Source: Escherichia phage 92CQ | Reading direction: 5' to 3' (one strand) | Sequence record: PV682554.1 | DNA length: 64,000 bases | Shown: positions 19,879 through 23,702 of the stretch, piece by piece | Position numbering within the stretch: position 1 is the first letter of the stretch | Layout of the letters: the number at the start of each line of letters is the position of its first letter | Translations under genes and position numbers: made by a program | Notes under the pieces: model-generated | What the model was told of the DNA's origin: nothing | Database searches by the model: none | Seen by the model: the letters and a program-made list of their open reading frames with translations, nothing else

Positions 19879-20148
19879 CTAAAATGATTCGTTTGTCTCC
19901 ATAATATATTGCATTTCCAAATCTTCCATATGTTTCTTAAATTGGTAAACAATTTCCGATGGGGAAATATCTATATCAAAAAGTTCTTTTGTACCAGAAT
20001 AAAACCTAATACCATCAACAATAAGACCACCATAATAATCCCAATCACTTTCTCGTGAGAAAGGATTAGGTTCTTCATAATAGTAATCTACTTCAACAAT
20101 AATAGGTTCTTTATTATCTTGTTTATACTCAAAATCAAAAGTGTTCAT
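19879..20148 (-). CDS. hypothetical acidic protein (89 aa)
   Basis: Track ORF; coupled to neighbours. Confidence 0.5.
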   Translation of the reverse strand: MNTFDFEYKQDNKEPIIVEVDYYYEEPNPFSRESDWDYYGGLIVDGIRFYSGTKELFDIDISPSEIVYQFKKHMEDLEMQYIMETNESF

Positions 20149-21092
20149 TATAAATCCTCGATAAGCAGTCTGCGGGTTTCATTTAAATCATCAATATTGT
20201 AGTTATCTCTTACATACTTAGCAAGAGCTAATCCTTTCTCAATACAAACATCAGGAGATTCGATTAAGTATTCTACAATATCTTTCCACTCTTTAACTGA
20301 ATCAGCAAAGAAGATTAGATCTTTAAATTCTTCAGTATAATAGTTCTCCCGTGGTGAACAAACGAGTGGCAAACCTTTAGCACCAGCTTCAAGAATTTTT
20401 AAATTACTTTTGGCATTATTAAAATGATTATTTACTAACGGAGCTATGGAGATTTGATGACCATCGTATGCTTCCATATAACACTCATAAGGACGAATAC
20501 CTTCATAAACACAATCTGGTTGAATATCTTCTTTAATTTGCAACCATTGAGCACTACTTAACTCTTCGTGATCTCTACGAAATCCACATAAAGTTAAATC
20601 TTTACCAAAACTAGGAAGAATAGCTAAATCATGTTTATGTGTTTCACTTCCCGCCCAAACTAGTGGACTTTTAGAATAACGGTCTTTCGTAAGAACAAAC
20701 TGTCCTTCATCAAAAGGTAGTCCGTTAGGCACAATATGTACATTATCATTGTATTGGCTTAATTCAACCTTTAATGCTGGAGTTGTTGTAGTTACAAGAT
20801 CGCTTCTTTCAAGGAACCATTTTAGGTCATCTCGGATTTGATTTTCAAATAATCCCTCAAGCATATGCCCTTCAGGAATAATTAAAGAATCATCCAGATC
20901 CATTACCAATTTAAACCCAAGTTGTTTAAGAGCCAGGAAACCTGGCTTTCCACGGGTTGGTACTCCATTGAACACAAAAATATTATGCTTAGGATTAATG
21001 GTCAGTTTGCGTTTATATGGCAAAATGATTCTATGAAAATCACATACACTATACTTTTCATTTCCGCGTGTGTCAAGAATAATATTAGGCAT
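20148..21092 (-). CDS. glycosyltransferase, GT-B fold (314 aa), paralogue 1
   Basis: C-terminal NLKILEAGAKGLPLVCSP resembles GT1/GT4 nucleotide-sugar binding motif; clear paralogue of 21104-22117. Confidence 0.65.
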   Translation of the reverse strand: MPNIILDTRGNEKYSVCDFHRIILPYKRKLTINPKHNIFVFNGVPTRGKPGFLALKQLGFKLVMDLDDSLIIPEGHMLEGLFENQIRDDLKWFLERSDLVTTTTPALKVELSQYNDNVHIVPNGLPFDEGQFVLTKDRYSKSPLVWAGSETHKHDLAILPSFGKDLTLCGFRRDHEELSSAQWLQIKEDIQPDCVYEGIRPYECYMEAYDGHQISIAPLVNNHFNNAKSNLKILEAGAKGLPLVCSPRENYYTEEFKDLIFFADSVKEWKDIVEYLIESPDVCIEKGLALAKYVRDNYNIDDLNETRRLLIEDL

Positions 21093-21103
21093 ATCGCTCC
21101 TTA

Positions 21104-22117
21104 TTAAAGACTTTCAATAACTTGACGACGCAGTTCATTGGCATCTGCAAGATTATAATTAAGACGAACGTGTTCTGCAAGCATCATACCACGATCTTCT
21201 GTGTATCTAGGGTTTCTCATTAGCTTCACAACTTCATAATGCCAAGATGCTTTAGAGTCTGCATAGATAACAGCCTTTGCATCTACCGGATTGAAGTACG
21301 GCAGCACAGGAGAACAGATAATAGGAAGACCCTTTGCACCTGCTTCCAAAATCTTCAAATTGCTTTTACAGTTGTTGAAGTCATTATCTACCAGAGGAGC
21401 AATTGCAATACTGTGACCGTCATACACAGACATATACTCACCTAAATTTTTAATAGCTGGTTTATACTGTGCATTTGGAATTTTACGTTTTACTTTAACC
21501 CACTCCGCAGTAGTTAGATACTGACTATTATTTCCAACAGGTGCAGAAGGATACACTTCATACCCTGCAATTGTCAATAGTGTATCATCAAATGTATTAG
21601 CTACAAGAGATAAATCAGGTTCATGGCTTGCTCCTCCAGCCCAAATAATAGGCGTGTCAGAATAACGGTCTTTTGTCAAAGTAAATTGACCTTCGTCGTA
21701 AGGTAGTGCGTTTCTAATAACGACAACATTACGATTTAAATGACGAATTTTGTAAGCTAGGTATTCTGTTGTTACTGTAACAACATCTGCTAACTTAACC
21801 ATCTCTACAATAGTCTTTGAATGATTAGTAAATACGCCAGCCATATAATGTTCAGGATTAAGTGAATAAAAGTCATCTAAATCAACAATAATCTTAACAC
21901 CTTGTGCCTTCAGGCGTTTAACTTCGTCTGCTCCATGAGAATACACTCTATTAAAAACTAAAACGTCTTTCTTAGGTTTAAACGTATTTCCAGCAAATGG
22001 CATTACAATACGATGGTAATCACAACCACTGCCTAACTTATTATCACACTTAAGTACAGGAGTATTAGGATTTACCATATTTTTGAGCCTCCTCATAAGA
22101 GATAAAAGTTTTACCAT
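21104..22117 (-). CDS. glycosyltransferase, GT-B fold (337 aa), paralogue 2
   Basis: Shares LPYDEGQFTLTKDRYS, YDGHSIAIAPLV and NLKILEAGAKGLP blocks with 20148-21092; alternative ATG at about 22078. Confidence 0.65.
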   Translation of the reverse strand: MVKLLSLMRRLKNMVNPNTPVLKCDNKLGSGCDYHRIVMPFAGNTFKPKKDVLVFNRVYSHGADEVKRLKAQGVKIIVDLDDFYSLNPEHYMAGVFTNHSKTIVEMVKLADVVTVTTEYLAYKIRHLNRNVVVIRNALPYDEGQFTLTKDRYSDTPIIWAGGASHEPDLSLVANTFDDTLLTIAGYEVYPSAPVGNNSQYLTTAEWVKVKRKIPNAQYKPAIKNLGEYMSVYDGHSIAIAPLVDNDFNNCKSNLKILEAGAKGLPIICSPVLPYFNPVDAKAVIYADSKASWHYEVVKLMRNPRYTEDRGMMLAEHVRLNYNLADANELRRQVIESL

Positions 22118-23702
22118 TGCGAAGATCCTCCAGTGATTGTTTATATTGTTCCCAGTTTACACCAATCCCCTGTTCTTTCTCTTCTTTTGACAGATTCGCA
22201 AAAGGTAAAGGATTATCTCCAAACACATCGTCAGGATGGATAAACGCCATAATTCGAATAGGACATGGTACGCCTGGAATACCTCGGTTCAAACCTGCCA
22301 GCGGAACGCGCTGAATCCACTCTGCATCTTCATATCCATAACCGTGGGTGTATGAGCGGAAATAGCCAGCTTTCTCAATAACTGCACGGGAATACATACC
22401 AAACTGGCACATCCCTAGTTCCCAAATAACCACTTCCCCTTCAATACCTTTTACTTTATCTTTAAAGTATTCAGGCATACCAAAGAAATCCCAACCATTT
22501 TCCTTCGCCTGTTTTACAAAATATGTTTCCCAACCTTGAACAACAGGATAACAATCATCATCAAAAATAAACCAGTAATCATACCCTTCATCATAAAACT
22601 TTTTCATCAGTTCATTACGAGCATATGCAACACCTTTTCGTTCCCGATCATACTGTACAACAAAAGTAGCATTAGGATCAGTCACAAGATAATCTTTAAG
22701 AGGACGCTTACCTACAGTAATAACACCAACACCAATTTTTGTATTTTCCAAATAGTCAAGGTTTTTGGTAATACGTGTACAACCGTCAGAAGTCAAACCG
22801 TCAACTTGAGTTTCCCAAGTACCGTGAATATTTCGGAACAATGTTGTTACACCTTTTGGTTCATTAATAATGATTGCCATAACAAGTTTAGGATCGATAA
22901 CAGACATAATCTTTTCCTCAATACCCTCTGTAATAACATTATTGCGCACAATATTAATTGCATCTTCTTGTACAGTAAGAACACTTACGTTCTTAAGAGT
23001 ATATACCTGCTGTGTAGTGTAAATGATACGAACATAACTTACAGAACGAGTAGGCACAGGTTTACGCGGTCGGCGAAAACGTGGTTTTGGTGAAGATTCA
23101 GTTTTACTTTCATCTTTTGAATAATACTCCTCAAACAGTTTAGTAAATGTTTTTACATCAACTACAAACCGATCTTTCCGATATGGAGAATTCTTATGTG
23201 CACCATTAATACCACTGTTTTCATCGAAGAAAGTAATGTTTTCTTCAGTTGAATACATTAGATAATGATCTGCATTGTTCCAATGTGGTTGTGGACAACG
23301 AGAATTACAAACGGAAAGCAGATAATTAATATTTTCTTTCGTGGCCTCAGTATCTAGGAAACACGTATTATGCACAGTCAGTTGTACTTTTTCAGCCATA
23401 TCCTTTTCTTTATCCTCATTGGTAAGATATTCAGTACGAAGAATTTCCAGAAAATTTTCAGGTGTTACTTCCATAAATGTATATTCAGGATGAAGTTCCA
23501 TATATTCAAATCCACAACCATCTAATTGCTGTAGAAAGTTAGGGTAGAAGAACAAATCATTAACACTGTGAATCAGATCATTGATTTCTGCTTCAGTTGT
23601 GTAACCAAAACTTTTGTGAATTGCCTCGTTAAGAATATGCAGGATACCCATCTCTTCTGCTGCTTTTTTAACTTCCAGTTTATTAGCGTAAAATGCAATC
23701 AT
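22065..23702 (-). CDS. two-domain protein with C-terminal GT-A (GT2-like) glycosyltransferase domain (545 aa)
   Basis: DxD-type motif WFIFDDDCYP and downstream YGYEDAEW motif typical of GT2 enzymes. Confidence 0.55.
   Translation of the reverse strand: MIAFYANKLEVKKAAEEMGILHILNEAIHKSFGYTTEAEINDLIHSVNDLFFYPNFLQQLDGCGFEYMELHPEYTFMEVTPENFLEILRTEYLTNEDKEKDMAEKVQLTVHNTCFLDTEATKENINYLLSVCNSRCPQPHWNNADHYLMYSTEENITFFDENSGINGAHKNSPYRKDRFVVDVKTFTKLFEEYYSKDESKTESSPKPRFRRPRKPVPTRSVSYVRIIYTTQQVYTLKNVSVLTVQEDAINIVRNNVITEGIEEKIMSVIDPKLVMAIIINEPKGVTTLFRNIHGTWETQVDGLTSDGCTRITKNLDYLENTKIGVGVITVGKRPLKDYLVTDPNATFVVQYDRERKGVAYARNELMKKFYDEGYDYWFIFDDDCYPVVQGWETYFVKQAKENGWDFFGMPEYFKDKVKGIEGEVVIWELGMCQFGMYSRAVIEKAGYFRSYTHGYGYEDAEWIQRVPLAGLNRGIPGVPCPIRIMAFIHPDDVFGDNPLPFANLSKEEKEQGIGVNWEQYKQSLEDLRNGKTFISYEEAQKYGKS

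Follow-up and report, generated by a model that had tools for sequence, protein, structure and literature searches.

What do the glycosyltransferases (GTs) act on that phi92-like phages carry among their replication genes? We addressed this question for a 64,000-nucleotide stretch of Escherichia phage 92CQ (PV682554.1), referred to here as the window, which contains three adjacent GT genes at 20148-23702 on the minus strand. The first-pass annotation of this sequence had named DNA base glycosylation, used to evade restriction, as the typical role of such genes, and had added that a host or virion target was equally possible. We judge this hedge to be sensible. As set out below, we tentatively favor a reading in which soluble enzymes assemble a glycan containing rhamnose; its acceptor would be something other than DNA, most likely a virion protein. 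We hold this reading with a confidence that stays somewhat short of even. In addition, the third of the open reading frames (ORFs) is a chimera that extends across a 15.9 kb gap and is unique to the window.

A cassette of soluble glycosyltransferases

The three ORFs at 20148-21092, 21104-22117 and 22065-23702, all on the minus strand, and the fold classes previously assigned to them were confirmed exactly. The first two encode GT-B enzymes: GT-B 1 (20148-21092; 314 amino acids (aa)) is a homologue of phi92 gp163 and of EmilieFrey bas61_0046, there annotated as 'putative disaccharide synthase', and GT-B 2 (21104-22117; 337 aa) is a homologue of phi92 gp164. The two are paralogues, as had been proposed, with 40% identity over 324 columns (E 7e-82), and each protein contains both of the sequence blocks quoted for that proposal. 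Both belong to phrog_7162, 'glycosyltransferase' (E 1e-145 for GT-B 1 and 1e-149 for GT-B 2), while the Pfam family Glyco_trans_1_2 scores above threshold for GT-B 1 only, the GT1-type Pfam matches of GT-B 2 remaining below it. Two Rossmann-like domains, a C-terminal nucleotide-sugar motif and best structural matches to GT4 enzymes identify the pair as GT4-like GT-Bs. The third enzyme is a GT-A with a DxD motif (22065-22751, minus strand; 228 aa), homologous to phi92 gp165 and EmilieFrey bas61_0048. It makes up the C-terminal 228 residues of the third ORF, which contain the FDDD and YGYEDAEW motifs noticed before, and it belongs to phrog_2456 (E 2e-78). In the profile-based family assignment, which the first-pass annotation had recommended, the PHROG families apply to all three enzymes, but NCBIfam yields zero matches for any GT or for the N-terminal 316 aa of the third ORF, and the Pfam TAGT match of GT-A stays below its threshold (see below).

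Enzymes of the CAZy GT4 type (sucrose-phosphate synthase, TreT, PglA, BshA, PimA, TarM, GtfA/SdgB) resemble the GT-Bs of the window in fold and in the LEAGAKGLP block of the C-terminal Rossmann domain, and enzymes of the GT2/GT27/GT7 type resemble its GT-A in fold and in the combination of DxD and YG.ED. However, identity to these enzymes is only 10-17% and is accompanied by no curated NCBIfam match; the acceptor cannot be inferred from them. Sequence hits in the PDB obtained with the family profiles were discarded as chance or marginal (TreT and MshA, E 0.02-0.03; b4GalT7, E 0.9). Among predicted viral structures, the neighbors of GT-A come from uncultured phages and giant viruses and are of GT2-like and GT25-like type. 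Membrane segments are absent from all the GTs, the maximum Kyte-Doolittle mean over 19 residues being 1.27.

The window belongs to a phi92-like phage of the genus Justusliebigvirus (Stephanstirmvirinae), with vB_Eco_PATM, PD114 and EmilieFrey/Bas61 as its nearest relatives; its identity to more than 50 sequenced genomes amounts to 98-99.5%. A 4.4 kb query around the GT genes matches 58 phage records at 95-99.5% identity, nearly all of them from Escherichia phi92-like phages. In this group, the GTs form a cassette (phi92 gp163-gp166, EmilieFrey bas61_0046-0049; Justusliebigvirus and Phapecoctavirus), to which the GT-Bs and GT-A of the window correspond with 98-100% protein identity and in the same order. 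In the window as in the relatives, two phrog_7162 GT-Bs and one phrog_2456 GT-A stand in tandem upstream of the gp162 homologue and the primase-helicase. What sets the window apart is the end of the cassette: in the relatives, GT-A is free-standing and has a fourth small GT (gp166, phrog_14179) upstream of it, whereas the window lacks this fourth GT together with 26 further genes, and its GT-A is fused. The cassette as such is already known, being annotated in more than 130 sequenced phages of E. coli and Klebsiella; as the proposal that it glycosylates DNA has also been published, the window adds no new kind of system.

Across phages, the cassette appears as an insertion of variable size in a replication backbone that is itself conserved: one GT-A is joined by zero to two GT-Bs, and the fourth GT may be present or not. 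In PVP-SE1, the gp167-like, gp162-like, primase-helicase and polymerase genes are retained with no GT between them, and in Klebsiella phage FKP3 the cassette is reduced to the GT-A and the fourth GT. Homologues of gp162 are found in 161 phage records, including that of PVP-SE1, and mark the backbone also in phages without the GTs. Where could the sugars come from? A complete relative of the window encodes RmlA, RmlB, RmlC and RmlD, the pathway to dTDP-L-rhamnose (Pfam E 1e-72 to 1e-82), and the phages that have RmlC are essentially those that have the GTs (105 versus 106 records in Escherichia, 8 versus 9-10 in Klebsiella). A distantly related phage contig of 135 kb has a gene for an NDP-sugar 4,6-dehydratase at the same spot inside the cassette, directly before the GT-A/GT-B pair, and the cassette of another relative combines three GTs with an epimerase, a radical-SAM enzyme and a DegT aminotransferase. 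Homologues of the GT-A/GT-B pair, or of the GT-Bs, are located directly upstream of, and co-oriented with, the terS-terL-portal-capsid genes in three other phage lineages; in one of these, Streptomyces phage KimJongPhill, a UDP-glucose dehydrogenase and a methyltransferase accompany them. Taken together, these arrangements indicate that the conserved core consists of one GT-A and one GT-B with a link to the supply of sugar nucleotides.

A separate observation concerns the records in which these genes are found. MG065639, MG065645 and MG065650 ('Campylobacter phage A150, A145, B15'; labeled C. jejuni) contain GT and Rml genes that are 99% identical to those of E. coli phi92-/phAPEC8-like phages. 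Probably, either the Campylobacter host labels are wrong or the preparations were contaminated.

Possible acceptors of the proposed glycan

How could these enzymes work together? In the reading we favor, the cassette would supply a set of soluble cytoplasmic enzymes, namely one DxD GT-A of presumably inverting type and two GT4-like GT-Bs of presumably retaining type, joined in intact relatives by the fourth small GT. As to donors, acceptor and sequence of steps, we infer the following: the GTs would act sequentially, using UDP-sugars of the host and dTDP-L-rhamnose made by the phage itself through RmlABCD encoded elsewhere in its genome, and the product would be a short rhamnose-containing glycan on a macromolecular acceptor other than DNA. 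By analogy with the capsid and tail-tube glycosylation of mycobacteriophages, the likeliest acceptor would be a virion protein of the phage. What weight is left over by this reading and by the two rivals discussed below falls on further candidates, among them host proteins and small molecules.

The analogy has a basis in homology. The N-terminal domain of mycobacteriophage Wee gp104 falls into the same family as GT-A, phrog_2456 (E 2e-63; BLASTP E 6e-12), and a tblastn search with GT-A returns 341 Mycobacterium phage records. Wee gp104 sits at the cluster F locus at which phage Che8 carries its virion-glycosylating GTs, and through it GT-A is significantly homologous to a GT of that glycosylation locus. 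For Che8, Freeman 2023, as cited in PMC11256854 and PMC12363180, is the source for glycosylation of capsid and tail tube by these GTs. The mycobacteriophage enzymes (Che8 gp108-110, Wee gp104) resemble those of the window in being soluble, in being encoded outside the structural operon and in occurring several in a row. In contrast, the two groups have different hosts, sugars and partner GTs, and phi92-like phages are not known to carry a glycosylated virion protein.

Several points weigh against a virion protein as the target. The similarity between Che8 gp108-110 and GT-A is not significant (E 0.78), which makes the link to Che8 an indirect one, and a glycan has been demonstrated on no phi92-like virion or protein. 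The rml genes are seen in the relatives and the corresponding region lies outside the 64 kb window, so that their presence in this very genome is not shown. The fold neighbors of the GTs equally include enzymes of lipopolysaccharide (LPS), O-antigen and teichoic-acid synthesis. Moreover, genuine DNA GTs also commonly adjoin polymerase, helicase or terminase genes (bioRxiv 2023.12.21.572611), which leaves the synteny ambiguous; for the same reason, we downgraded terminase adjacency as evidence for a virion target. Ser/Thr-rich tails on the sheath and portal proteins are weakly suggestive of acceptor sites and were set aside as too weak to use.

Outside of phages, the only homologue of the GT-Bs was found in Burkholderia dolosa (JAIMDN010000082, 3025-8440; 411 aa, 35% identity). 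Its gene follows, in an apparent operon, those for an inverse-autotransporter adhesin (IAT_beta, Invasin_D3, Big_1) and for an overlapping 571 aa protein without recognizable domains, and this locus may be an adhesin-glycosylation operon. A search of 185,579 species genomes for bacterial GT-B relatives returned only B. dolosa itself, and from this single case the synteny with an adhesin cannot be generalized. The window itself encodes a lateral tail fiber (8880-11681) that carries a Big_2 Ig-like domain, and this fiber is a speculative candidate for the acceptor. If a virion protein is indeed the target, this would matter for immune recognition in phage therapy; these phages, which are therapeutically attractive and have a broad host range, carry the full dTDP-rhamnose pathway and up to four soluble GTs. 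To our knowledge, it would also make them the first phages of Gram-negative bacteria with a glycosylated virion.

But what about acceptors in the host envelope, or DNA itself? In infected cells, the GTs and Rml enzymes could alter precursors of LPS, O-antigen, enterobacterial common antigen or capsule at the cytoplasmic side of the membrane, and such remodeling could block superinfection or the adsorption of progeny to debris. dTDP-rhamnose is a classic O-antigen precursor, several tail fibers or tailspikes of these phages recognize surface glycans, and the solved structures nearest to the GTs include many enzymes that act on undecaprenyl- or lipid-linked acceptors and on teichoic acids (PglA, PglH, PimA, WbnH, WaaG, WaaB, TarM, TarP, TarS and RmlT). 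However, O-antigen seroconversion of the Gtr type requires GtrA (a flippase), GtrB (a bactoprenol GT) and a serotype-specific GtrC, none of which is annotated in phi92-like relatives; a flippase, a polymerase and a Gtr-type membrane component are all missing, and the GTs themselves are devoid of membrane segments. The phages have short, strictly lytic cycles, members of these GT families are also found in phages that infect Actinobacteria, whose envelopes differ greatly, and there is no experimental hint of seroconversion, so that we regard an envelope target as unlikely. Even less probable in our view is a target in phage DNA, where the GTs would attach a sugar, with rhamnose as one possibility, to a pyrimidine carrying a hydroxyl or hydroxymethyl group and thereby block nucleases. 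This idea is not new, Olsen et al. having proposed in 2020 that rhamnose is used to glycosylate hydroxymethylated nucleotides in these phages (PMC7552041), and it is poorly supported. It draws on the retention of the cassette beside primase-helicase and DNA polymerase in relatives that have diverged to about 40% identity, on the presence of Dcm-like and Dam-like methyltransferases, and on features of GT-A, which contains an R...DDD...ED motif common to DNA-modifying phage GT-As (bioRxiv 2023.12.21.572611), matches phrog_842 (T2/T6 beta-glucosyl-HMC alpha-GT) weakly and has a match to the Pfam domain TAGT (PF20691). The TAGT match reaches 22.8-24.1 bits over about 60 N-terminal residues, where the gathering threshold in Pfam is 27.5 bits, and it spans only the generic nucleotide-binding region. 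TAGT recurs in 12 of 18 members of the GT-A family, in all 12 below threshold, next to Glycos_transf_2 in six and Glyco_transf_7C in four. Structurally, a TAGT-domain protein ranks only 46th among the viral neighbors of GT-A, and T4 AGT and BGT do not appear to be its nearest structures.

Known systems of phage DNA glycosylation comprise the T-even GTs acting on 5-hydroxymethylcytosine (5hmC), those of RB69, DLP3 and RL38JI acting on 5-hydroxycytosine (5hoC), and combinations of a methyltransferase, a 5mYOX (TET) and a GT. Like the cassette of the window, they feature several GT-A and GT4-like GT-B enzymes, a sugar-nucleotide supply encoded by the phage, a position among replication genes and a similar GT-A motif. 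The difference lies in how the acceptor base would be made: phi92-like phages lack a ThyA-family synthase, and neither a dNMP-kinase/dCTPase set nor a 5mYOX could be identified. All known synthases of 5hmC, 5-hydroxymethyluracil and 5hoC are ThyA homologues. The first-pass annotation had suggested looking for a hydroxymethylase in the rest of the genome; a search of a complete relative revealed no ThyA-family dCMP hydroxymethylase or hydroxylase and none is annotated. The sole thymidylate synthase homologue of this relative is a divergent Thy1/ThyX protein (PF02511 E 4e-9, TIGR02170), and a thymidine kinase is present. Tet_JBP or other 2-oxoglutarate oxygenase domains were found neither in about 25 large hypothetical proteins of the complete relative nor beside either methyltransferase, in a scan that is not exhaustive for proteins under about 160 aa; the only hint of an oxygenase is a sub-threshold Cupin_3 match of 27 residues in bas61_0054. 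The neighborhood expected of TAGT enzymes, with a C5 methyltransferase and a TET/JBP 5mYOX near the GT, is also absent, the methyltransferase being about 40 kb away. The number of GTs has no bearing on the question: DNA with two or three sugars attached by several GT4-like GTs is known from RL38JI, DLP3 and RB69 (PMC13326640), and we withdrew the argument that four GTs are too complex for DNA modification. About 65% of the phage contigs that have such GTs come without a base-modification partner, and these GTs are held to be unlikely DNA modifiers (bioRxiv 2023.12.21.572611). Finally, Maffei et al. 2021 (PMC8594841) report phi92-like phages to be 'exceptionally susceptible' to restriction of types I, II and III, and this 'despite a putative dTDP glycosylation machinery', whereas phages with glycosylated cytosines are highly restriction-resistant (PMC13326640). 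Protection of DNA bases from restriction, as first suggested for this locus, is thus not borne out by the enzymes found, by the sub-threshold TAGT match or by the reported susceptibility of the relatives. That susceptibility argues against a global base substitution and not against a sparse, site-specific one, which would escape the restriction enzymes tested so far. We consider it very improbable that such a sparse or site-specific rhamnose-glycan on DNA exists, with its acceptor made by an enzyme that is neither of the ThyA family nor a recognizable TET, e.g. the divergent ThyX-like protein or an unrecognized oxygenase acting on Dcm-type 5-methylcytosine.

With regard to thymidylate synthases, one annotation in EmilieFrey deserves mention. 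The 323 aa product of 124839-125810 (minus strand) is annotated as 'thymidylate synthase'; it has a weak Thy1/ThyX match of 37 bits, scores 35.5 bits against an NCBIfam cut-off of 87.9, and is covered in residues 22-175 only.

A 15.9 kb gap and a chimeric reading frame

The third ORF (22065-23702, minus strand; 545 aa) had been described as a two-domain protein. This description does not apply to a natural GT: the ORF is a read-through chimera over the 15.9 kb gap. Its N-terminal 316 aa (22755-23702, minus strand) are homologous to EmilieFrey bas61_0076, a separate protein in that phage with its own TAA-ended coding sequence, and they are joined to the GT-A module at a blunt junction (22752-22753), where EmilieFrey 47157-63035 is absent. 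This missing block amounts to 15,879 bp and 27 genes, i.e. the fourth GT (gp166/bas61_0049) and 26 more. In every relative, the segments 19800-22752 and 22753-27300 of the window map about 15.9 kb apart, and none of the 58 records spans the junction; where coverage is near-full, the GT-A is a free-standing gene of 228 aa followed by the fourth GT in all relatives (55/55).

At the level of single bases, bas61_0076 of EmilieFrey ends with ...CTT GAC TAA, and the window reads ...CTT GAC TAT TTG GAA AAT. Starting at the last stop-codon base and reaching the second base ahead of the TTG start of GT-A, the removed stretch is a multiple of three in length. As a consequence of the change from TAA to TAT, the upstream gene reads in frame into GT-A, producing the chimera of 545 aa. 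In the relatives, GT-A starts with TTG at the equivalent of 22751-22749 and has its own AAGGAG ribosome-binding site, which is missing in the window; judging from the sequence, GT-A can be made here only as the C-terminal part of the chimera. As the 15.9 kb loss took the fourth GT as well as the start context of GT-A, the cassette is truncated in the window, and it may be impaired. The N-terminal part falls into phrog_15930 (E 4e-182, residues 1-316) and has no Pfam or NCBIfam match. Its PHROG label 'ribonucleotide reductase' was rejected for want of domain support and probably reflects adjacency to nrdD in the relatives.

Is the junction a real genome structure? An artefact of assembly or sequence handling would account for 22752|22753 and the 545 aa ORF, and we consider it the less probable explanation, though one to be taken seriously. 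Both endpoints lie within one or two bases of the boundaries of coding sequences, an odd and near-exact coincidence, and the gap is an exact multiple of three. Repeats or microhomology at the endpoints do not exceed chance (best local score 11, compared with a mean of 8.8 and a maximum of 13 for shuffled sequences). Apart from its absence in the 58 related records, the junction is not represented in viral and metagenome contig collections, as searched with its 37-mer, nor does the gene index contain the exact 545 aa protein. A genuine deletion, on the other hand, fits the accessory nature of the missing genes. The block contains the fourth GT, a second cell-wall hydrolase (Hydrolase_2), a macrodomain protein, an AAA ATPase, the anaerobic ribonucleotide reductase NrdD/NrdG and a complete Ter system with TerD, a TerF-type vWA protein, TelA, TerC, a ComF-like phosphoribosyltransferase and a HAD phosphatase, and these genes are plausibly dispensable. 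The block also varies in nature: JLBYU50 has a version shortened by about 2.5 kb, and in Klebsiella phage FKP3 the distance between the helicase and GT-A is only about 6 kb. In the remainder of the window, the order of genes is that of the relatives; relative to EmilieFrey, the 64 kb are colinear except for small indels in variable regions, one small inversion and the one large gap. A viable deletion mutant is therefore plausible. Whether the deletion is genuine or an artefact, the two-domain architecture and the closeness of the UvrD-like helicase to the GTs are not conserved features. The gap and the chimera are the new element of the window and require confirmation at the level of reads before weight is given to them. 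If the deletion is real, the phage would be a natural variant that lacks the fourth GT and makes GT-A only as a chimera, and it could be used as a comparison strain. The phage-borne Ter system, located in EmilieFrey 47157-63035, is in itself little studied.

Gene neighborhood and further observations

The GTs share the minus strand with a family A DNA polymerase (15019-17598; from the ORF list and the annotation of relatives), a primase-helicase (18094-19866; from the annotation of relatives) and a UvrD/Rep-like helicase (24998-26773), as noted in the first-pass annotation. The primase-helicase lies directly downstream in the gene string, while the UvrD/Rep-like helicase owes its proximity to the 15.9 kb gap. 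Between cassette and primase-helicase lies the phi92 gp162 homologue (19879-20148, minus strand; 89 aa, phrog_4240). The genes are tightly packed: the GT-A frame overlaps GT-B 2 by 53 nt, GT-B 2 and GT-B 1 are separated by 11 nt, the stop of GT-B 1 overlaps the start of the gp162 homologue, and the latter lies 12 nt before the primase-helicase. Promoter and terminator scans between 17.5 and 27.5 kb gave hits at chance level only and are uninformative on operon structure. A beta-class DNA methyltransferase had been placed beside the GTs; the enzyme is real (N6/N4, Dam-like; 12105-12836, minus strand; Pfam N6_N4_Mtase E 2e-30), but it is located 7.3 kb and several genes away. The Dcm-like C5-cytosine methyltransferase (63262-63999, minus strand; Pfam DNA_methylase E 3e-20; bas61_0190) lies about 40 kb from the GTs in window coordinates and is incomplete, as the window ends within it.

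Directly upstream of the chimera, at 23720-24987, are three small genes. They encode a YqeY/GatB-like protein (Pfam YqeY E 5e-7), a 190 aa fragment resembling class II aminoacyl-tRNA synthetases (phrog_4806) and an 83 aa MazG/PRA-PH-like protein; several further synthetase-like fragments are found elsewhere in the genomes of the relatives.

Two of the smaller differences from EmilieFrey can be described more closely. At 14968-14989, between the nucleotidyltransferase-like and DNA polymerase genes, about 516 bp of EmilieFrey (38878-39392) are absent, which correspond to bas61_0041, a 198 aa protein without domain match. As phi92 also has no gene at this position, the difference is ordinary variation. 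The segment 31840-32654, with homologues of bas61_0099 and bas61_0100, is inverted with respect to EmilieFrey 72740-73553, where divergent gene blocks switch; long inverted repeats flanking it were not found, and the sole pair, of 17 nt, is situated elsewhere.

Finally, the window encodes a Sir2-family protein at 61118-61930 (Pfam E 2e-22). In the relatives, genes for NAMPT, a PRPP synthetase, a NADAR (YbiA-like) protein and a macrodomain protein are present as well, suggesting an NAD/ADP-ribose counter-defence set.

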